Part shown: one piece after another, positions 6,435 to 19,407 of the stretch
How positions within the stretch are numbered: the first letter of the stretch is position 1
How the letters are laid out: each line of letters starts with the position of its first letter
NCBI GenBank assembly: GCA_048938005.1
Contig: JBHLMQ010000012.1
Span: 1 to 64,000 of the forward strand
Direction of reading: 5' to 3'
Length of the DNA stretch: 64,000 bases
Origin: Promethearchaeota archaeon
Lineage (GTDB): Archaea; Asgardarchaeota; Lokiarchaeia; Sigyniarchaeales; SOKP01
The notes under the pieces: generated by a model
The model's database searches: none
What the model was told of the DNA's origin: nothing
Seen by the model: the letters and a program-made list of their open reading frames with translations, nothing else
Translations under genes and position numbers: made by a program

Positions 6435-6956
6435 TTGGTGATTATCATCAGAGAAGAGACTGATTATACTGAAGCGATTGAGGCATATAAAAACGATCCA
6501 TACGTTATTTTAGAACCATGGGGCAGGAGTATTGATCATTTAAGACTGACCATCTTAGGAAAAAAAGCAACACCATATGCAGATGGGAAGTTTGTATTCG
6601 AGATAAAATTTCCAGACAACTATCCATTCGCACCTCCATATGCTTACGCAGTTACATTGATGTGGCATCCTAATATTGATAGTTCTATTCCACCTGGGAA
6701 ACTTAATATCTGTTTAGATTTAATTAATCCAGATTTAGTAGGTAAAGTTGATGCATCCACAGGGGCATCTGGTTGGACTCCAAGCAAAACACTAACAAAT
6801 ATTATAGAGGCTCTTAAGGGGATGATGCATGTTGAACCTCCATTTTTTAATCCTGGAGATCCATTAAATCATGAGGCAGGAGAACAATATTTTAGAGCAC
6901 AGAAAAAATTTGAAGCAAAAGCTACTACTTGGACTAAGAAATATGCTATGGATTGA
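6435..6956 (+). CDS. Ubiquitin-conjugating enzyme E2 (catalytically intact)
   Basis: TPYADGKF, FPDNYPFAPP, WHPNI...ICLDL (HPN + catalytic Cys), WTP, DPLNHEA. Confidence 0.95.
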   Translation: MVIIIREETDYTEAIEAYKNDPYVILEPWGRSIDHLRLTILGKKATPYADGKFVFEIKFPDNYPFAPPYAYAVTLMWHPNIDSSIPPGKLNICLDLINPDLVGKVDASTGASGWTPSKTLTNIIEALKGMMHVEPPFFNPGDPLNHEAGEQYFRAQKKFEAKATTWTKKYAMD

Positions 6957-8364: not shown

Positions 8365-9948
8365 TTACATAAAAGTGATCACAACATTATATTTCTTGAT
8401 GTCAGATTCTGCTAAAGCTTTTCCTAAAGGAGTTAAGGTGATAATATCATTACTTTTTATTTTTAGTGAAGTTAATTTTACATCAGGATCTTTCAGTGAG
8501 GGCATATATGGATTCCAATAAATTTCTTTAGTCATTGGATTTGTTATCATCCATAATTTCGGATCTAATTCATATCCTGTGATTTTCATAGCTTCAAAAA
8601 TATAACCAACATCAGCATCAAATGGAACTACGATTTGTACATTCTCTTCTCCTTCAATCTTTCCACAAGCTAGACAATCTTCTCTTTTAATGATATCTAG
8701 ATGATCAAATAGCCCATATATGCCATTATAATTTACATAAGGAGGATCCATTGGAGGACCTATATTTCTTCCTTTCACTCTAAATAATAATTTTAGAGTT
8801 TCTTGAGATTGTACACTGGCAATAATTGAGCTAACTGTTTGTATAGCTGCGATTTTATTACCAAGAATATTTTCCATTTCTTCGAATTTATAATCTGGTC
8901 CAAATGTTTCTTTAATATTTTTTTTCCATTCCTCAATTTCCTCTTCTGTTAAGATTTCTCTTTTTTCTGGAGGAACATTTTCATTAAAAACTCGTTCTCG
9001 TAGTTTTATTAATTCTTCTTGAGCTAATTCTTTTAGCTTTATCACTTCATTGTTGAGATTTAAATCAGGTTTGTGTCCATATTTCTTTTCAAAATCTACT
9101 TCCGCTTTTATTACGCAGTGATTCCTATTGCGTGGTAAACCTTTTAATGTACATGCTGCAACGAGTTTATCATCAGCAGGAGGTATTGGTACTAAACACC
9201 TATAACAGGGAGTTTGATCTAATAATTTAGGAGCATATTTCCAATCAAACACCATTTCTATTTCTTTACGAATTTTTTGGATTATGGGTGTTATTTTTTC
9301 TGTTTTTATTACTTCAATTTCTTCTTCTAGTTCATCAATTCTTCTCTGCGCTTGAAAATATTTTGGGTATTCGAGTTCATCTATTTCCCACAACATAGCT
9401 TCAACCATTTTATCGATTTCATTTTCTCTATCTTTATATCGTAATCCTGAATCCTCAGGAATTACAATTTGGCAATGCCCTTCAAACCCAACTGTTCCAC
9501 CTTCTACCATTGGCTTTTTCAATCTTAAACATATCTTATTTAAGTCTAATCTTGCGTTAAAATTATCTAAAGCTGCTACTATTACATCAGATTCTTCATA
9601 AACTGACATAGGTAATTTTTGGAGTTTTTCAAAATAATGATCAACCTTAAGATACGGATTTATTTCTTTTAATCTTTCTGCTGCAACCTCCGCTTTGGGA
9701 CGACCTTCATCACCGGGTTTGAAAAGCATTTGTCGAGATAAATTAGAGGTTTCAATAGTGTCTAGATCAACGAGGATCAGTTTACCAATTCCCATCAGAG
9801 CAAAATCCTTGGCAATTTCACAGCCTAATGCGCCAATACCAATAATCATAATACACCCATTATTTATTATCTCTTGATCCCATCCCTCAATTAACTGCTG
9901 CCGAGCATACATTCGAGATTTAACAATATTATCAGTGTTTTCTGTCAT
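8365..9948 (-). CDS. Ubiquitin-activating enzyme E1 (eukaryote-like, with catalytic Cys domain and probable C-terminal UFD)
   Basis: YARQ, GIGALG, DLDTIETSNLSRQ, ALDNFNAR; PCYRC and CLAC Zn pairs; AACTL catalytic Cys; beta-grasp-like C-terminus (IKSNDIITL). Confidence 0.9.
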   Translation of the reverse strand: MTENTDNIVKSRMYARQQLIEGWDQEIINNGCIMIIGIGALGCEIAKDFALMGIGKLILVDLDTIETSNLSRQMLFKPGDEGRPKAEVAAERLKEINPYLKVDHYFEKLQKLPMSVYEESDVIVAALDNFNARLDLNKICLRLKKPMVEGGTVGFEGHCQIVIPEDSGLRYKDRENEIDKMVEAMLWEIDELEYPKYFQAQRRIDELEEEIEVIKTEKITPIIQKIRKEIEMVFDWKYAPKLLDQTPCYRCLVPIPPADDKLVAACTLKGLPRNRNHCVIKAEVDFEKKYGHKPDLNLNNEVIKLKELAQEELIKLRERVFNENVPPEKREILTEEEIEEWKKNIKETFGPDYKFEEMENILGNKIAAIQTVSSIIASVQSQETLKLLFRVKGRNIGPPMDPPYVNYNGIYGLFDHLDIIKREDCLACGKIEGEENVQIVVPFDADVGYIFEAMKITGYELDPKLWMITNPMTKEIYWNPYMPSLKDPDVKLTSLKIKSNDIITLTPLGKALAESDIKKYNVVITFM

Positions 9949-10104: not shown

Positions 10105-13100
10105 TCACTTCTTTTTCTTTTCAGCAGCTTCTTTAATCATTTTTTTAAGACTATCAACTTTTTCTCTCTCCTTCGCTTTTTCCAATTTTTCTTGGAAGAT
10201 TCTTTTATCCTCTTCCTTTTTTGTTATTTCATCCTTGAGTTCTTGCTTCATTTTTATTAAATTTGTCATCTCCTTGCGAAATTCTTTTGATTTAGATTCA
10301 AATCTCTTTTTTTGCTGAATTTCCAATACTACTTGTTCTTCTCTCCTTTCTTCAATTAGGCTTATTATATTATCAGTTAATTTACTGACTTCTCCAACTG
10401 TCTCTTTTAATTCTGTTTCTTCCTTTTCTCTACGCTCTTTTTCTAAAATTTTTTGTTTTTCTAATTGTTCTTGAACAGCTTTTATTCTGGCTTCTTCACT
10501 TGTAACTCTTTCTTCTAAAGCTTTCGCATTTCTAATTTCTGTTTGAATATATTTTACTTCTTCATCCCAACCAATTTCACTGAACTTTTTAATGGCTAAA
10601 TCAAAATTTTTAAATGCCCTTTCAAATTCATGATATGCTGCCCATTTTTTTCCTTCATCAATGAGTTTTAATCCATCGTCTCTTATTTGTTCCACTTGCT
10701 GCCTTTTAACAACTAAATCTCTATATTGTCTTTCTTGTTCTCGTTTAATTTTTTCTTGTTCTAAACGTCTCCTTCTCACTTCCTCTTGAAACATTGCAAA
10801 TTCGTTTTCCCTTTGTAAGCGAGCTTGCTCCTCTAATCTTTTCTTTTCAATAAAATTTGTCTGTTCCTGTTGTAAATCTTTAATTAGAGCATCTAAATTC
10901 TTTATTTCTGGCTCCCAGCCTATATTTTCCGCTAAAATGTGTCTTGCTTGAATATGTAATGAAATTGCTTTACTATAGTTGGGAATATGGTGTTTTAAAA
11001 ACTTACCCGCTTCTTCTAGAAGAGAATATGCTGACTCTCTTACACTCATTTGTTCTTGTATGATTTTTTCTCGTTCTTGAAGAGCTAATCGTTGAGCTTC
11101 TTTCTTTTCCCTTTCTTGTCTTTTTCTTTCATCTATAAGTGCTGATAATACTCTTTCCTCCTCTAGCTTTTCCAATTCTTTTTGAACTTGCAAATTTTTT
11201 AATTCTTCTTTTTGATTTTTTAGTGTTTTAATCTTAAATATCATGTTATTAATTGAGTCTGTTGGAAATTGCAATTCATTTAATATAATACCAGCACTTC
11301 TATAACATACTATTGCATTATCATAATTTTGTTCTTTTAGAAAATGTTCTCCTTCATCTAAAATCTTGAATGCTTGTTCTTTTCTTTGTTCTAATCTTGA
11401 TTTTAATTGTTCTTTTTTTAATATTTCTAATTCTTTTGCTTTCAATCGCTCTTGTTCAACACGAGTGGTCTCTGCAATTTTTTGTTGAAACTCCCATTCT
11501 TCTCGCTCTTTTTGTATACTCAATTCAAACTCTTTTTGCTTCTGTAGCTGATATTCTCCTTTCTTTTCTTTAATTTTAAGAATTAATTCTCTGATAGATT
11601 CAGTTGGAAATGAAATTTCATTTAACATTAATTCTACCGCATAATAATACTCAAGAGCCTTATCATACTGTAATTGTTTCATATAACTCTCTGCTTCTTC
11701 AAGAAGAATGAAAGCTTCTTCTTTCCTTTTTTCCATATATGCTTTTATTTGATTTTGTTTTTCAGCTTCTGTTTGCTTTACTTTCAACTTAATTTCATTT
11801 ATTTTGACCTTCTCTGCTATCTCTTGTTGGAATTTAAATTCTTCCTGGGCTTTTTGAAGCTCAGCCTCTAATTTCTTTTGTTTTGCTAATAATTCTTCTT
11901 TAATTTTTTCCTGAACTTTGTAAATCATTTCTCTAACTGAATTTGTAGGAAAACCAATTTCATTTAATATCAATTCTGCTTGGCGATATTTTTCAATTGC
12001 TTGTTCGTATTGCCTTTGATTAAAAGAGTTTTCAGCAGCCTCCAATATAGCAAATGCTTCTATTTTACGATTTTCCAACAATTGTTTTATCTTTTCCTGT
12101 TTTTTGATTTCAATATTTTTTGCTCTTAATCTTTCTTGTTCTATTTGCATATATTCAGAGATCTTTTTCTGAAATTGTTCTTCTTCCTTTTTATGTTGCT
12201 TTAATGATTCAATTTCAAATTTTTTCTCTCTTTCTATATCTCTCTTCCTAGCTTTAATTGTATTTAAAGTATCTTGAAGTAATTTTAAATAATCACTTGT
12301 CCATCCAATCTCAGTTAAAATATTTATTGCATTTTGATAGTTATTTAACGCTTCATCATAATCCTTTTGGTAAAGTGAAGTATATCCATCATTAATGAGT
12401 TTAAAAGCTTCTTGTTGTTTTGCTAAATTTTGGGTGGTAAGTAATTCTTTCTTTTGAATTATTTCTCTTTCCTCTAATGCTTGTACCCTTTCTATTTCCC
12501 TTAAATGTCTTATCCTTTCCATAAAAGTATAATTTTCCTTCTCTTTTTCTATTGCTTCAGTGATCGATTTTTGTCTTAATAATTCTTTTTTTCTCTTCTT
12601 CTTTTTAATATCTTGTATTGCTTTATTTATAATTGGAATTTCATCTCCCCATTGAATCTGAGCAAAAATATTGGCGACATTGTGATAAAGTTCAATAGCA
12701 TCATCAAATTTGCTTTGTGAAATGCAGGTTTGACCTTTTTCTAATAGGCTAAATGCTTCTTCCTTCTTTCTTTCACGGTAAGCAAGTTCTTTGTCTCTTT
12801 CTCTAATTTTAATTTCTTCTCTCTTTAATTTTTCACGTTGTATTCTCATTTCTCCGATTAGTTTTTCTTGAAACAATTTCTCTTGTTTTTCCTTTTCCAT
12901 AGCAGATTGTAATTCCCGTTGTTTTCTTAATTCAGCTTCTCGTTTTTTATCCTCAACAGCAATAATAGAATTTTGAATTAATTTTATTTCTTCATCCCAT
13001 TTAATTTCTCTAAAAATTTCTGCTGCTTCATGATATAAATTAATTGCCTCATCAAATTTTCCTTGTTGAATATGTTTTTGAGCTATTTCCAACTTTTTAA

Positions 13101-16100
13101 ATGCTTCTTCTTCCTTTTGTTCTTGAAAAATTCTTAATTCTTCTTGTTTCTTCAATTTCTCTTGCTTTTCTATCATTTTTTGCTCTTCAAATCTAATTTT
13201 CTCTAAAATTTGCTTTTGAAATAGTAATTCTTCTTGTTCTCTTTTTATTCTTAACTCTAGTTCTTTAAACCGGTTTAAATCTTCTTCTCTTATTTTCTCT
13301 TGAATTTTTGAAATCATTTCTCCAATAACTCCTGTTGGGAAATTGATTTCATTTAATATCAATTCTGCTTGATGATATTTTTCAATTGATTTTACGTAAT
13401 CTCCTTGAATTAAAAGAGTTTGAGCATCATCCATTATTTTAAAAGCTTCTGATTTACGCAACTCTATTCTTTTTGCTAAATCTTCTCTTTTTTGTATTTC
13501 AATTTTTTTGTCTTTTAACTTTTTCTGCTCTTTAAGCATATATTCGCTAATTTTCTTTTGGAATAAATCATCTTCTTTCTGTTGTTTTAATGATGCTTCA
13601 AATTCTATTTGTTTCTCTTTTTCCTTTTCCTTCCCTCTTAATTTAATTGTTTGAATAGTTTCATGTAATAATTTCAAATATTGTTCTCCCCACCCGATAT
13701 CTTTTAGAATTTCTATGGCTTTATTGTAATTATTAATAGTGTCATTGAAATTTTCTTCTTCAAAAAACTTATCTCCAATTTCTATTAAACTAAATACCTT
13801 TTGCTGTTTAACTAAGTTTTGGGCAGATAGCTGTTTCTGTTCTTCGATTGATTCTTTTTCTTTCAAGAGTTCTGCTTTTTCTCTCTCTCTTTGATACCTT
13901 ATTCTTTCAATAAATGCTTTATCTTCAGTTTCTTTCCTAATTGCTTTATGTAAAAGCTTTTGTTTATTTAATTCATTCTCCCTCTTTCTATTTTCAATAC
14001 TTTGAATCGCTTCTTGGATGATGGGGATTTCTTCAGTCCATTGAATCTGAGCAAAAATATTTATTACATTATAATAAATTTGAAGTGCTTCATCAAATTT
14101 TCTATGAGAAAGGAAATCTTGGGCCTTTTCTAATAAACCAAATGCTTCCTCTTTCTTTCTTTCCCGATAAACAAGTTCATTTTCTCTTTCTCTTAGAATT
14201 ATTTGTCTCTCTATTAATTTTTGATGTTGGGCTTTCATTTCTTTTGCGATATGTTCTTGAAATGCTTTTTCTTGTTTTTCTCGTTCCAATTCTGCTTGAA
14301 ATTTAATCTGATTTTGAATTTCAGCTTCTATTTTTCTATTTTCAAGTTCAACTATAGCATTTTGTATGAGGTTGATTTCATTCTGCCATTGAATATCAGC
14401 AAAAAAATTTAGACTATATTGAAATATATCAATAGCCTTATCAAAATTTCCTTGTTTTACATTGTCTTGTGCTTCTTCGAGTAATTTGAAACCTGCTATT
14501 CTTCTTTCTTCACGAAATTTAGATTCTTTCTCACGTTCCATTAATTCAATTTTCTTTTTCTTTAGTTTTTCCCGTTCTTGTTGTAAGTATTTTGATATTT
14601 GCTTTTGAAACTCATCTTCTTTCTTTTGTCTTTTAACAGAGTCCTGTAATTTCTTTTGTTTCAAGATATTTTGTTTTCTTTGTAACTCTTCAACTTCTCT
14701 TATTGAATCTTCAATTAAAGGAATTTCATCTGCCCATTGAATTTCTGCAAATATATTTGCAGCATTTTGATAATTTGAAATTGTGTTATCATAATCCCCC
14801 TGTTTTAAGGAATTTATAGCGGAATCTAGAAATTCAAATGCAACTTTTTTGCGTTGTTCAAAAAGTTTAATCTCCTCTTCACGATCTTTAATAATTATTT
14901 CCTTCTTTTTTAAACGGTCTCGTTCTTTATTTATTTCAATTGATATTTGCTTCTGAAATTCTAATTCTTCCCGTCTTCTCTCCTCTAATTTTTTTTGCTC
15001 CTCGTATTCCTTGGTAAATTGTGCGTGCTTTAGCAGTTCTACATTAGAGACTGTATTTTTTATTATAGATGCATAAGGTTCCCAACCAGCACCTAAATTT
15101 GTAAGAATTGATAAAGCTTTCTGATATTCATTTATAGCATCATCATAATTTTTTTCTTTTAAAATCTCATCCGCTTTATCTAATGTATTAAAGAGATCTT
15201 TTTCTTTCTGTATTTCATCCCTTCTGACTTCTTTATATTCTATACTTTTTTTATCTAATTCCCTTGTTGATTCGATAATTTGGGTTTTCTGCTTTTTGTA
15301 AATTGAGTCCTGGAGTACTGCTAAATCTTTTTCTCTTTTTTCTTTTAATTGATCAGTTACTTTTTCACTTTTTTGTTTATTTTTTATGCTTTCAATTAAA
15401 TTTGCAATAGGTTGGATATATGAATCCCATTTTATCGATCTAAGAAGTTGAATTGCTTGATTTAATTTATTGAGTGCTTGATCATATTTTTTTTCTCTTT
15501 CAAGCCTATTTCCAATATCTATTAAATTAAATGCCTTAAGTTGAATATCTTCCTCATGTTTTTTATTAGTTTCAAATTCAATTAGTTTTTCCTTTTTTAA
15601 TTCTGCTTCTTTTTCTAAAACAACTTTCTGTTCTTCAATATCACCAGATAACCTTAATGCTTCTTTTTTTTGTTTTAATTGAAGAGATTCAAAATCTGCT
15701 TTATCTTTATTAAGTTTTTTAATTAATATTTGAATATTTTTTGTCTGAGCATTCCAACCTATAGAATCTAATAACTCTATAGCTCTTTCATAATTCATTC
15801 TTGCATTATCGAATTTTTTATCTTTTTCAAACTTTTTAGCTGTGTCGATATGAACAAAAGCCTGGTTCTGGATATCCTCTTCATGTTTTTTCTTTGCCCT
15901 AAATCTTTCAATAACTTTTGCTTTTTCAACGCTACTTTTTTGTCCGAACATTCCAACAATTTCAGGTTTCACTTCTGGTATTATTTGAGTTTCTTGTTGC
16001 TTTAATTCAATTTCCTGCTGTTGAAGTACTTGAATAGATTTTTTAACCTCTAAATCTTTTACAAGTTTATTGATTTTAGATCTTATATTTTCTAATTGTG

Positions 16101-16482
16101 TCTCAGACCAACCTGCTTGAGTTAATAGATTGATAGCAGATAAATTTTGTTGAATAGCCTCTTCAGTAAAACCGTCAAATTCCAACTTTTTTGCCCCCTC
16201 TAATAAGGAAAAAGCTTGATCTTGCAATTGTTCAATTTGGGCTTTTTCTTGAGCTCGTTGATATAAAGCGTCTTTTTTGATAAATTCTTTTAATTCACTA
16301 ATTCTATCATAAATTTCTTGAATTCTATGCATCAAAAATCCACTTTGTTTAAGAAAATCAGCTGCTTTTTGATAATGTGAAATTGCATTTTCTACCTTTT
16401 TCTCTTCTTCAAACTTTTGGGCAAGTTCTAAAAATTTTAAAGCTTCTTGTGCTAAAAATTCTGGATTTTGCATTTTAGGCAA
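10105..16482 (-). CDS. Giant (2125 aa) repeat protein: 18 MIT/TPR-like helical units joined by E/K/R/Q-rich helices
   Basis: Recurrent AF.LL..A......YD.AI..Y..A..I..EI.(W/F) unit roughly every 117 aa. Confidence 0.85.
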   Translation of the reverse strand: MPKMQNPEFLAQEALKFLELAQKFEEEKKVENAISHYQKAADFLKQSGFLMHRIQEIYDRISELKEFIKKDALYQRAQEKAQIEQLQDQAFSLLEGAKKLEFDGFTEEAIQQNLSAINLLTQAGWSETQLENIRSKINKLVKDLEVKKSIQVLQQQEIELKQQETQIIPEVKPEIVGMFGQKSSVEKAKVIERFRAKKKHEEDIQNQAFVHIDTAKKFEKDKKFDNARMNYERAIELLDSIGWNAQTKNIQILIKKLNKDKADFESLQLKQKKEALRLSGDIEEQKVVLEKEAELKKEKLIEFETNKKHEEDIQLKAFNLIDIGNRLEREKKYDQALNKLNQAIQLLRSIKWDSYIQPIANLIESIKNKQKSEKVTDQLKEKREKDLAVLQDSIYKKQKTQIIESTRELDKKSIEYKEVRRDEIQKEKDLFNTLDKADEILKEKNYDDAINEYQKALSILTNLGAGWEPYASIIKNTVSNVELLKHAQFTKEYEEQKKLEERRREELEFQKQISIEINKERDRLKKKEIIIKDREEEIKLFEQRKKVAFEFLDSAINSLKQGDYDNTISNYQNAANIFAEIQWADEIPLIEDSIREVEELQRKQNILKQKKLQDSVKRQKKEDEFQKQISKYLQQEREKLKKKKIELMEREKESKFREERRIAGFKLLEEAQDNVKQGNFDKAIDIFQYSLNFFADIQWQNEINLIQNAIVELENRKIEAEIQNQIKFQAELEREKQEKAFQEHIAKEMKAQHQKLIERQIILRERENELVYRERKKEEAFGLLEKAQDFLSHRKFDEALQIYYNVINIFAQIQWTEEIPIIQEAIQSIENRKRENELNKQKLLHKAIRKETEDKAFIERIRYQREREKAELLKEKESIEEQKQLSAQNLVKQQKVFSLIEIGDKFFEEENFNDTINNYNKAIEILKDIGWGEQYLKLLHETIQTIKLRGKEKEKEKQIEFEASLKQQKEDDLFQKKISEYMLKEQKKLKDKKIEIQKREDLAKRIELRKSEAFKIMDDAQTLLIQGDYVKSIEKYHQAELILNEINFPTGVIGEMISKIQEKIREEDLNRFKELELRIKREQEELLFQKQILEKIRFEEQKMIEKQEKLKKQEELRIFQEQKEEEAFKKLEIAQKHIQQGKFDEAINLYHEAAEIFREIKWDEEIKLIQNSIIAVEDKKREAELRKQRELQSAMEKEKQEKLFQEKLIGEMRIQREKLKREEIKIRERDKELAYRERKKEEAFSLLEKGQTCISQSKFDDAIELYHNVANIFAQIQWGDEIPIINKAIQDIKKKKRKKELLRQKSITEAIEKEKENYTFMERIRHLREIERVQALEEREIIQKKELLTTQNLAKQQEAFKLINDGYTSLYQKDYDEALNNYQNAINILTEIGWTSDYLKLLQDTLNTIKARKRDIEREKKFEIESLKQHKKEEEQFQKKISEYMQIEQERLRAKNIEIKKQEKIKQLLENRKIEAFAILEAAENSFNQRQYEQAIEKYRQAELILNEIGFPTNSVREMIYKVQEKIKEELLAKQKKLEAELQKAQEEFKFQQEIAEKVKINEIKLKVKQTEAEKQNQIKAYMEKRKEEAFILLEEAESYMKQLQYDKALEYYYAVELMLNEISFPTESIRELILKIKEKKGEYQLQKQKEFELSIQKEREEWEFQQKIAETTRVEQERLKAKELEILKKEQLKSRLEQRKEQAFKILDEGEHFLKEQNYDNAIVCYRSAGIILNELQFPTDSINNMIFKIKTLKNQKEELKNLQVQKELEKLEEERVLSALIDERKRQEREKKEAQRLALQEREKIIQEQMSVRESAYSLLEEAGKFLKHHIPNYSKAISLHIQARHILAENIGWEPEIKNLDALIKDLQQEQTNFIEKKRLEEQARLQRENEFAMFQEEVRRRRLEQEKIKREQERQYRDLVVKRQQVEQIRDDGLKLIDEGKKWAAYHEFERAFKNFDLAIKKFSEIGWDEEVKYIQTEIRNAKALEERVTSEEARIKAVQEQLEKQKILEKERREKEETELKETVGEVSKLTDNIISLIEERREEQVVLEIQQKKRFESKSKEFRKEMTNLIKMKQELKDEITKKEEDKRIFQEKLEKAKEREKVDSLKKMIKEAAEKKKK

Positions 16483-18882: not shown

Positions 18883-19407
18883 ATGTCAAGTTTTAAACTG
18901 AAAGTATTACTTACTGGTGCTGCTGCTGTTGGAAAGACTAGTCTTGTCCAACGATTCATCAAGAATAGGTTCCAAGCCAATTACAAGTTAACTGTAGGAG
19001 TTGATATTTTAACCAAAGATGTTGAATTTAGGCAAGGAGAGATTGCCACTTTAAGTATTTGGGATATAGGAGGACAACAACGATTCGAATTTATACGTAG
19101 TACATTCTATAAAGGTGCGGCAGGAGCATTATTAGTCTTTGACTTGACTAGAGAACAAACATATACTGAAACGAGAAAGTGGCTAACTGAGATAAGACAA
19201 TTTGCTGGTGAGAATATCCCATTTGTTTTAATAGGAAATAAAGCGGATTTAATGGAAGATGTTGGTATGGTCATAGATCGAAATGATGCTCGCTCATATG
19301 CTGAAAATGAGGGAAGTATTTATATAGAAACTTCTGCTAAAACGGGTGTTAATGTTGATGAAGCGTTTACTGAATTAACACGTCGTATTATTGATTCTAG
19401 AACTTAG
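18883..19407 (+). CDS. Rab-like small GTPase
   Basis: GAAAVGKT, TVGVD, WDIGGQ, FYKGA, LVFDL, GNKAD, ETSAK; no C-terminal prenylation Cys. Confidence 0.93.
   Translation: MSSFKLKVLLTGAAAVGKTSLVQRFIKNRFQANYKLTVGVDILTKDVEFRQGEIATLSIWDIGGQQRFEFIRSTFYKGAAGALLVFDLTREQTYTETRKWLTEIRQFAGENIPFVLIGNKADLMEDVGMVIDRNDARSYAENEGSIYIETSAKTGVNVDEAFTELTRRIIDSRT

Follow-up and report, generated by a model that had tools for sequence, protein, structure and literature searches.

A giant repeat gene of a Promethearchaeota archaeon encodes what is best read as an elongated, semi-rigid cytoplasmic rod, probably a multivalent scaffold or spacer; from its sequence and from structural models, we give this reading a probability of roughly one half. 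The window analysed is the whole 64,000-nucleotide stretch, positions 1 to 64,000 of the forward strand of contig JBHLMQ010000012.1 (assembly GCA_048938005.1). A single open reading frame in it (P0001) spans 10105..16482 on the minus strand, with 2125 codons counted from a TTG at 16482. Because the orthologues open with the N-terminus MQNPEE, the true start is probably a downstream ATG, which defines the gene as follows:

10105..16473, minus strand, giant repeat protein gene (2122 aa from ATG at 16473; stop codon at 10105-10107)

The repeat structure is genuine and an assembly artefact is ruled out, because contigs from three other studies tile the reading frame without a credible joint (90% likeness threshold; the tiling contigs tabulated are about 98–100% identical to it) and 61 homologues share the layout. 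The initial annotation had reported neither a transmembrane segment nor a catalytic motif, and both statements held. In every 19-residue window of the whole protein the Kyte–Doolittle mean was at most 0.86, and the absence of a hydrophobic segment points to a cytoplasmic location. A Pfam scan of the protein returned TPR-clan families only, MIT included, and no enzyme domain, while an NCBIfam scan gave no meaningful match. The same genome encodes a second giant protein, P0122.

By motif scan and inspection, we counted 18 units with a period of ~116 aa, against 18 units of ~117 aa originally claimed. Their anchors lie at residues 30, 110, 224, 333, 446, 564, 680, 796 and 912 (units 1–9) and 1029, 1143, 1259, 1375, 1492, 1606, 1720, 1836 and 1953 (units 10–18); the first spacing is 80 aa and those thereafter are 109–124 aa, mostly 114–118. 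An HMM made from the 18 units recovered 18 of 18 in the genome (E 1e-16 to 9e-27). The protein is laid out from its N-terminus as follows:

16255..16467, minus strand, unit 1 core, a three-helix bundle (motif scan, unit HMM)
16015..16227, minus strand, unit 2 core (motif scan, unit HMM)
15928..15987, minus strand, helix break after unit 2 (residues about 166-185; P169, P173, G177, G180)
15673..15885, minus strand, unit 3 core (motif scan, unit HMM)
15346..15558, minus strand, unit 4 core (motif scan, unit HMM)
15007..15219, minus strand, unit 5 core (motif scan, unit HMM)
14653..14865, minus strand, unit 6 core (motif scan, unit HMM)
13132..14520, minus strand, cassette copy 1, units 7-10 (types A-B-C-D) with linkers (residues 655-1117)
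11740..13131, minus strand, cassette copy 2, units 11-14 (types A-B-C-D) with linkers (residues 1118-1581)
11527..11739, minus strand, unit 15 core (motif scan, unit HMM)
11185..11397, minus strand, unit 16 core (motif scan, unit HMM)
10837..11049, minus strand, unit 17 core (highest conservation of all units, 0.79 mean identity to orthologues)
10486..10698, minus strand, unit 18 core (motif scan, unit HMM)
10108..10455, minus strand, C-terminal tail, read from its sequence as helical (residues about 2010-2125; ends in a conserved polybasic stretch ..KKMIKEAAEKKKK)

The four-unit super-repeat noticed at the outset is real: units 7–10 are duplicated as units 11–14 with 48% identity over 463 aa, and full-period identities are 45% (7/11), 54% (8/12), 45% (9/13) and 47% (10/14). 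The background is ~25%; the remaining unit pairs mostly share 18–35% identity, with a few at 36–48%. The break after unit 2, the sole clear helix break in the protein, bears a conserved motif (VGMFGQKSS) and is possibly a hinge or a short linear motif.

Modelled alone with AF2, a unit folds as a three-helix bundle (helices 2–28, 32–48 and 52–85; pLDDT 86.3, pTM 0.68), in agreement with what had been proposed for each unit; helices 1, 2 and 3 measure ~20, ~17 and ~20 aa. In a three-unit model (residues 605–1000; pLDDT 85.5), unbroken helices of ~90 residues alternate with helices of ~17 residues (2–72, 76–91, 96–188, 192–208, 215–304, 308–325 and 329–395), and those at 96–188 and 215–304 are each predicted to consist of helix 3, the linker and the following helix 1. 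The pTM of 0.33 for this model means that relative bundle placement is uncertain; rise per unit and straightness are estimates. The linker of ~55 residues that joins helix 3 with helix 1 of the next unit is modelled at pLDDT 90–95. The units thus appear in AF2 as separate beads on long helices with spectrin-like continuity, the arrangement first suggested for them, and no TPR solenoid was seen.

That the giant is instead an ordinary TPR-repeat protein with a contiguous solenoid is highly implausible, although sequence searches lean that way: in every unit the helix-turn-helix is recognised by TPR_1 and TPR_2 (PF00515/PF07719; 62.4 and 60.1 bits over the protein, both above the Pfam cut-offs), a PDB sequence profile search matches consensus TPR proteins, and some homologues are named 'TPR repeat protein' in one source. 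However, the TPR matches cover ~22–25 residues per unit of a motif that is 34 residues long, at the helix 1-to-2 turn only, and there is one motif per 116 aa with a helix of ~55 residues between. Unlike TPR proteins, in which three or more adjacent repeats stack as a solenoid, the giant is modelled as isolated, unstacked three-helix bundles, with 1.5 repeats per unit and long helices between them. An ESM Atlas search with three units reached only TPR-like or unnamed clusters, the best of them (0.90, recognition 1460) below a meaningful level.

The kinship to MIT domains proposed in the initial annotation fared differently in different searches. The first 16 matches listed by Foldseek for a single unit against the PDB were all MIT or MIT-like, among them Vps4, MITD1, NRBF2, spartin and katanin p60N, with E-values of 0.04–0.4 that are not significant; the closest neighbour was the NRBF2 MIT domain (TM 0.66–0.68, rmsd 1.8 Å over 73 columns). 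With the three-unit model, Foldseek gave no PDB match at E ≤ 0.001, and the top rows were long-helix proteins. A wide VIA-align search with a single unit did not discriminate, because MIT domains, TPR pieces, a plakin repeat and designed bundles tied at Z 8–9.7, on a scale where a chance helical-bundle arrangement commonly scores up to 13. Pfam MIT (PF04212) scored 59.8 bits over the whole protein (E 2.8e-16), summed over 5 stretches; 11 of the 18 single units matched it at E ≤ 1 (best 7e-5; one displayed score 15.7 bits) and none reached the 30-bit cut-off. The displayed matches span profile positions 2–38 of 66, that is, helices 1–2 only, whereas the genome's own Vps4 MIT spans positions 2–66 at 50.9 bits, and when the unit profile was compared with that Vps4 domain by hhalign, the probability was 49% over 34 columns. 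Since the Pfam matches stop at helices 1–2 and the Foldseek matches lack significance, we call the units MIT-like, short of proven MIT.

Those neighbours are MIT domains of Vps4 (2v6x), archaeal Vps4/CdvC (2w2u), NRBF2 (4zey/2crb), MITD1 (4a5x) and katanin p60N (5nbt), and they have in common with the units a three-helix bundle of ~70–80 aa and a TPR-like helix 1–2 motif (A..l..A....g.YdeAi..Y..A); the MIT family belongs to Pfam clan CL0020, the TPR clan. In known MIT proteins, an enzyme or adaptor bears one to three MIT domains at a terminus, whereas the giant has 18 bundles serially and no other domain, and its helix 3 falls outside the MIT profile and extends as the linker helix. MIT domains take up MIM helices, from ESCRT-III or comparable ligands, in an interhelical groove. 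As the initial annotation suggested, the bundles might bind the C-terminal MIM helices of ESCRT-III subunits and so cluster, space or recruit ESCRT-III polymers, an explanation that we consider unlikely. Several of the neighbouring MIT domains were solved with ESCRT-III peptides, the summed Pfam MIT score also speaks for it, and the genome has genes for Vps4, for an ESCRT-II subunit and for two members of the Snf7 family, but these lie on contigs C34 and C3, away from the giant gene. The truncated profile match and the hhalign result both tell against it, as does distribution: among the genomes scanned the giant is restricted to one family of the phylum, whereas ESCRT is given as general among Asgard archaea in the text of PMC11188069.

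In its connectivity the protein resembles spectrin and plakins, rods of three-helix bundles in which the last helix runs into the first helix of the next repeat, with a period of about 106–116 aa; plectin repeat 2odv aligned with a unit at Z 8.4 and rmsd 1.6 Å over 77 residues. All three helices of spectrin are ~30 aa and lie within the bundle, whereas helix 2 of the giant is ~17 aa and ~55 residues of connecting helix lie outside any bundle. The spectrin family (PF00435) was absent from the Pfam matches at E ≤ 1.

The linkers had been taken for charged single alpha-helices (SAHs). They are long helices rich in E (20.7%), K (17.5%), Q (12.0%) and R (8.9%), free of proline except at the break after unit 2 (P169, P173), and are like SAH spacers and coiled-coil rulers in these respects and in a possible spacing function; long spacers, tethers or rulers of this kind include the myosin SAH, golgins and CCDC39/40. 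An SAH has a very high E/K/R content and few hydrophobic residues, whereas across the 17 linkers charged residues make up only 33–58% and strong hydrophobics 19–33%. Among linker hydrophobics a heptad signal did not rise above shuffles (mean spectral power at period 3.5, 0.18 versus 0.19), and by eye about half of the a/d-like positions are hydrophobic. The linker sequence is itself conserved, with a mean identity to orthologues of 0.48–0.69 versus 0.56–0.79 for the bundles, and contains a motif, FQ..I, that is invariant or nearly so in orthologues and aligns gap-free in 11 of 15 aligned periods (units 3–17). What survives of the earlier view is therefore an E/K/R/Q-rich helix, not a canonical SAH. 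A UIM-like reading of the linker motif was rejected, as by eye the spacing of its conserved residues misfits the UIM consensus. The content of strong hydrophobics, the FQ..I motif and conservation near that of the bundles together suggest that the linkers are interaction surfaces or pair with other chains, beyond being mere stiff spacers.

Pairing of this kind could make the protein a self-assembling cytoskeletal element, its linkers associating with other chains or docking in MIM fashion, staggered by half a period, into bundles of the chain alongside, to give a dimer, bundle or lattice. We regard this as possible, if doubtful. The hydrophobic content is excessive for a lone charged helix, linker conservation is close to that of the bundles, and the motif of the weakly amphipathic linkers, in its longer form FQ..I..(Y/M/L), recurs per period, so that each period would comprise one bundle and one amphipathic motif. 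On the other hand, the linker hydrophobics do not exceed shuffles at period 3.5, and in the AF2 monomer the linkers are confidently modelled as lone helices.

Unit number proved to be fixed within the genus and variable beyond it. All 62 proteins of 2108–2127 aa have exactly 18 units; an alignment of 41 orthologues (51–91% identity) has gaps in only 39 of 2125 columns, and the unit period is 114–119 aa in 1215 of 1226 intervals. Of 41 further genomes of the genus that gave a match, 36 have open frames of 2120–2140 aa, the remaining five having frames of 331–1267 aa that are possibly cut at contig ends. Even in a 51%-identical orthologue, the unit of the same number was the best match for 16 of 18 units. 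Same-locus orthologues in other genera have 4, 7, 9, 14, 16, 17, 20 or 25 units, so that, on these sequences, the family does not depend on any one length. In a quick tree of the units, duplications of blocks are lineage-specific and, as read from the unit types, larger numbers arose through duplicated blocks of central units. We dropped the idea that the 4-unit cassette is one superhelical turn, as the counts seen in different genera do not run in multiples of 4. The 116-aa module profile matched 106 of 134 genomes of one family and 0 of 265 genomes of other families, and a C-terminal probe matched 103 of the 134, with one copy per genome. Distant representatives of module-bearing proteins also turned up in a wider search. 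A count that is fixed within a genus and varies between genera fits a structural scaffold or spacer, and both the constant count and the absence of gaps in the linkers strengthen the scaffold or ruler first envisaged.

The gene neighbourhood raises a further explanation, centred on the next gene downstream:

8365..9948, minus strand, E1-like (ThiF/UBA1-like) gene of eukaryote type (same strand, 156 nt downstream; a neighbour, its link to the rod only a candidate)

The rod might cooperate in the ubiquitin pathway with this E1-like enzyme and an E2 close by, perhaps as a platform for assembly or as a major substrate. By its similarity to Uba1 (E 6e-39) the E1 belongs to the eukaryotic UBA1 type. 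In 15 of 19 loci (4-, 9-, 14-, 17-, 18-, 20- and 25-unit forms) an E1-like gene is the next one downstream on the strand of the giant gene, and most of these loci also have an E2 within a few kb. Several MIT proteins of eukaryotes, USP8 and AMSH among them, act as enzymes of the ubiquitin pathway. However, the whole neighbourhood is collinear within the family, unrelated genes included (RACo, aspartate kinase, HAD hydrolase), so the adjacency may be plain synteny. T-rich tracts and the AT-rich 156-nt spacer between the giant and E1 genes weaken an operon reading; the E1 is on the opposite strand at the other-family locus L027 and was not seen at loci L026, L031 and L032, and ubiquitin-like genes are located on other contigs. 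We judge such cooperation improbable.

In the semi-rigid scaffold or spacer that we favour, a small three-helix bundle of the MIT or 1.5-TPR type would form every ~116 residues, and helix 3 would extend unbroken via the ~55-residue E/K/Q/R linker into helix 1 of the next bundle, with the connectivity of spectrin repeats. The 18 beads would then lie along a helical track that is nearly continuous, its one conserved break coming after unit 2. Each period would measure ~11 nm (~93 helical residues × 0.15 nm, minus the antiparallel helix 2) and the rod ~200 nm overall; we infer its rigidity, physical length and docking function. Because the sequence identity of each bead persists across orthologues, the beads probably differ from one another as docking sites, whether for helical peptides or for other partners. 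Linker length appears strongly constrained, and bead spacing and rotational phase would be constrained with it, while between genera the length would shift in whole-unit steps via duplicated A-B-C-D-type blocks.

More speculatively, the family may serve Lokiarchaeia as a molecular ruler that can evolve: a rigid rod, its beads spaced by 116 residues, would fix some cellular dimension or the distance between bound complexes. Cassette duplication would then tune the rod's length between genera by whole beads, from 4 to 25 (perhaps ~45 to 290 nm), and the invariant linker length would keep the angular register of the beads.

A description of this family was found neither in full-text literature searches nor by term searches within PMC11188069 and PMC9192718, whose supplements could include it under an asCOG number, and no prior description of an MIT or 1.5-TPR bundle as a serial bead in a spectrin-like rod was found in the full-text literature. 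New here are the fixed 18 units, the near gap-free alignment, the orthologues of 4–25 units and the one-family range of the module. Asgard archaea are studied for clues to how eukaryotic cell architecture arose, and only a few of their large structural proteins have been characterised. An unusually strict repeat number and linker length within a genus, with modular steps between genera, form the pattern that a spacer or ruler should show; were the beads to bind helices of ESCRT-III or cytoskeletal type, such a ruler would be the archaeal counterpart of rulers of the spectrin or nebulin type.

A single open reading frame of 2125 codons, read from a TTG at 16482, covers 10105..16482 on the reverse strand. 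Because its orthologues open with MQNPEE and an ATG sits there, at 16473, translation probably begins at that codon, giving a giant protein of 2122 aa. The window has a G+C content of ~28% and encodes a histone deacetylase, Ras/Arf-type GTPases and E1 and E2 of eukaryotic type, a gene set typical of an Asgard archaeon. We found 224 homologous proteins at E <= 1e-3; among the 120 matches listed, all are unnamed, hypothetical or called "TPR repeat protein", and names of homologues include Promethearchaeota or Lokiarchaeota archaeon as source.

Motif scanning and inspection identified 18 repeat units in the giant, and an HMM built from the 18 unit cores (alignment A1) detected every one of them again when run on the genome (E 1e-16 to 9e-27). 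The first anchor spacing is 80 aa and later ones are 109-124 aa, mostly 114-118. Units 7-10 recur as units 11-14, at full-period identities of 45% (7/11), 54% (8/12), 45% (9/13) and 47% (10/14), and 48% overall across 463 aa; in the full-period matrix, the remaining unit pairs are mostly 18-35% identical, with a few at 36-48%. Both the unit count and the super-repeat had been described in the initial annotation, whose observation held on every point checked. Conservation peaks in the bundle core, at the E..RK..AF entry to helix 1 and at the (I/L)(G/Q)W or FPT loop preceding helix 3. We infer that these positions fit a structural clasp at every junction, which would stiffen the joints. Two further features of the rod were mapped:

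15928-15987, reverse strand: rod break, residues ~166-185, the only proline-/glycine-containing break
10108-10160, reverse strand: C-terminal end of the giant, conserved, polybasic and weakly amphipathic, ..LKKMIKEAAEKKKK

The break follows unit 2 (P169, P173, G177 and G180) and bears a conserved motif, VGMFGQKSS, whose F and G are invariant in 41 orthologues; it is possibly a hinge or a short linear binding motif. More speculatively, the polybasic end could bind membranes or nucleic acids.

Repeat number, which the initial annotation had proposed surveying, was 18 in 62/62 proteins of 2108-2127 aa (A1 HMM), a set to which the query belongs. With the same HMM we counted 14 units in proteins of ~1640-1660 aa and in three of 1716-1760 aa, 16 in 1891 aa, 20 in 2326-2349 aa and 25 in 2927 aa; orthologues fetched from the same locus had 4, 7, 9 and 17, so that the other forms run from 4 to 25 units. 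The period was 114-119 aa in 1215/1226 intervals of all homologues with at least 14 units, and the 41 orthologues, at 51-91% identity, showed gaps in only 39/2125 query columns. Each of units 1-6 and 15-18 is of a type of its own. Between them lies a central cassette of types A-B-C-D, present once in the 14-unit class and twice in the window's 18-unit giant. In the 16-unit form the central order is A-B-C-B-C-D, and blocks are larger in the forms with 20 and 25 units. Units clustered by type in a quick, weakly resolved unit tree, in which the two cassettes of the 18-unit form split before two 18-unit proteins diverged. Extra copies in the 16-, 20- and 25-unit forms clustered with one another in the same weakly resolved tree, implying independent block duplications.

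A probe consisting of units 17-18 and the tail matched 107/400 genomes of the phylum, the window's own included (by family, 103/134 in f1, 1/1 in f2 and 2/14 in f3). Eight genomes gave a second match, in the same open frame in seven and from a gene split across two contigs in one. Within the window's genus, 41/53 other genomes matched, 36 with frames of 2120-2140 aa and five with frames of 331-1267 aa, which contig ends may cut. Elsewhere, frames were mostly 1643-1666 aa with a few of 2312-2357 in one genus, 2927 aa in another and 1077-1081 aa in a third. The profile of a 116-aa module (alignment A4), at E <= 1e-18, matched genomes of f1 only (106/134; other families 0/265). Searched against a library of 1.84 billion proteins, it matched 1811 representatives at E <= 1e-3, a count that falls to 397 at <= 1e-10 and to 92 at <= 1e-30, with 2-33 stretches per representative.

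The units had been proposed to be MIT-like. The whole giant scored over the Pfam cut-offs for TPR_1 (62.4 bits), TPR_2 (60.1 bits) and MIT (59.8 bits), each score being a sum over repeats. Taken singly, 11/18 units matched MIT (best E 7e-5), 9/18 TPR_1 and 8/18 TPR_2, the single-unit scores seen being far under the cut-offs (unit 8, MIT 15.7 bits versus 30). Units matched only positions 2-38 of the 66 in the MIT profile; the genome's own Vps4 matched positions 2-66 at 50.9 bits. A PDB sequence profile of the units matched consensus TPR proteins along just 22 residues and, weakly, the MIT domains of archaeal Vps4 (2v6y, 6e-4) and NRBF2 (4zey, 0.02), and hhalign paired the unit profile with the genome's Vps4 MIT at 49% probability over 34 columns. 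At the level of sequence, then, the unit has just the helix 1-turn-helix 2 motif that TPR and MIT have in common, and nothing beyond.

Structure prediction of a single unit (residues 765-850) gave a three-helix bundle (pLDDT 86.3, pTM 0.68). The best 16 Foldseek matches listed against the PDB were all MIT or MIT-like domains, including Vps4, MITD1, NRBF2, archaeal Vps4, spartin and katanin p60N; NRBF2 was the closest listed (TM 0.66-0.68, rmsd 1.8 A, 73 columns), and no E-value was under 0.04. VIA-align against 48,161 chains gave Z <= 9.7, in a range (below ~13) common among helical bundles according to the tool's note, and did not separate MIT domains (NRBF2 9.5, katanin 8.9, Atg1 8.6, Vps4 8.0) from TPR fragments, designed bundles or a plectin repeat (8.4). 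We conclude from these models that the bead is a three-helix bundle of MIT-like, or 1.5-TPR, type; the proposal thus stood for the predicted fold and its best structural matches, but not for E-values or full profile coverage.

For residues 605-1000, AF2 run on the alignment of 41 orthologues (A2) predicted helices at model positions 2-72, 76-91, 96-188, 192-208, 215-304, 308-325 and 329-395 (pLDDT 85.5, pTM 0.33). From these boundaries, each period contains a short helix 2 of ~17 residues and one unbroken helix of ~90 residues, made up of helix 3, the linker and the following unit's helix 1. The predicted bead-to-bead connectivity is spectrin-like in this respect, helix 3 running unbroken into the next helix 1. 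A contiguous TPR solenoid is ruled out as far as prediction can do so, the AF2 model consisting of lone bundles joined by the ~90-residue helices.

The 17 linkers measure 21-59 aa, mostly 55-58, and are composed of E (20.7%), K (17.5%), Q (12.0%) and R (8.9%) among other residues. Charged residues make up only 33-58% and strong hydrophobic residues 19-33%, and hydrophobic periodicity at 3.5 residues was not above shuffles (0.18 versus 0.19). The linkers are therefore neither canonical charged single alpha-helices (SAHs), as had been suggested, nor canonical coiled coils. Proline is absent from them save at the single break after unit 2. Over units 5-17 they align without gaps and have in common a motif around FQ..I, whose F and Q vary little, if at all, among orthologues; linkers average 0.48-0.69 identity to orthologues, versus 0.56-0.79 for bundle cores. 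Selection thus acts on linker sequence, beyond composition alone. This is the main observation left unexplained by a simple stiff-spacer reading, and it keeps alive a rival model in which the giant would self-assemble through its linkers.

Near the giant gene, the window encodes:

8365-9948, reverse strand: E1-like gene, 527 aa, with a ThiF domain; best PDB matches Uba1, E 6e-39
6435-6956, forward strand: E2 (UQ_con)
18883-19407, forward strand: Ras-family small GTPase, 174 aa
21961-24342, reverse strand: Arf-like GTPase, 612 aa, and an upstream 163-aa ORF

Another rival reading is that the giant would act together with the neighbouring E1 and E2. The E1-like gene follows the giant gene on the same strand after a gap of 156 nt, and was directly downstream and co-oriented in 15/19 fetched loci (opposite strand in one; not found in three, two of them short contigs). 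As collinearity extends equally to the E2, a HAD hydrolase, RACo, the Ras-like GTPase and aspartate kinase, this adjacency may be plain synteny; the spacer is AT-rich with T-rich tracts, so a shared operon is at most a possibility. The Ras-family GTPase is very strongly conserved in the family: in the 15 fetched loci where it was matched at full length, amino-acid identity is 81-97%, much higher than for the genes around it. The Arf-like GTPase is collinear in most fetched loci; no Pfam match was found for the 163-aa ORF.

In a further rival reading, the beads would bind ESCRT-III. Contig C34 of this genome carries the genes for Vps4 and an ESCRT-II subunit together with one Snf7 gene; a second Snf7 gene is on C3, and ubiquitin-like genes are on C56 and C97 (PF00240 matches on C56, C97, C60 and C70); none of these genes is inside the 64-kb window. 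Proteins with related bundle units or MIT-like regions are also encoded elsewhere in the genome (G000, in fetched loci L009, L025 and L023):

L009:5014-10305 (G000:C31), reverse strand: P0122, a second giant, 1763 aa
L025:1504-3846 (G000:C65), forward strand: 780-aa protein, N-terminal MIT match (47.6 bits) then classical TPR arrays
L023:1898-3274 (G000:C46), reverse strand: 458-aa protein, C-terminal MIT-like match (25.7 bits)

P0122 represents a paralogous beads-on-a-rod family. It has at least ~11 related bundle units, 116-145 aa apart, two of them near-identical and in tandem; its repeat type (..PY..II.IY......GW..) differs from that of the window's giant, and its sole Pfam match is a weak one to MIT (18.2 bits).

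The best-supported reading is that the giant would be a semi-rigid cytoplasmic rod presenting 18 non-equivalent small helical bundles at fixed spacing, with MIT/TPR-clan bundles as predicted serial beads along a spectrin-like rod. From the predicted helix lengths, we infer ~11 nm per period and ~200 nm overall. Of the interpretation in the initial annotation, the spectrin-like rod of three-helix bundles is retained, but MIT identity by sequence and canonical SAH linkers are not. Full-text literature searches, with term look-ups in the Asgard ESCRT papers PMC11188069 and PMC9192718, turned up no account of the family. Its length is constant within a genus and shifts between genera by whole units, and the interest of the family rests on this strict, modular length control within an Asgard lineage.
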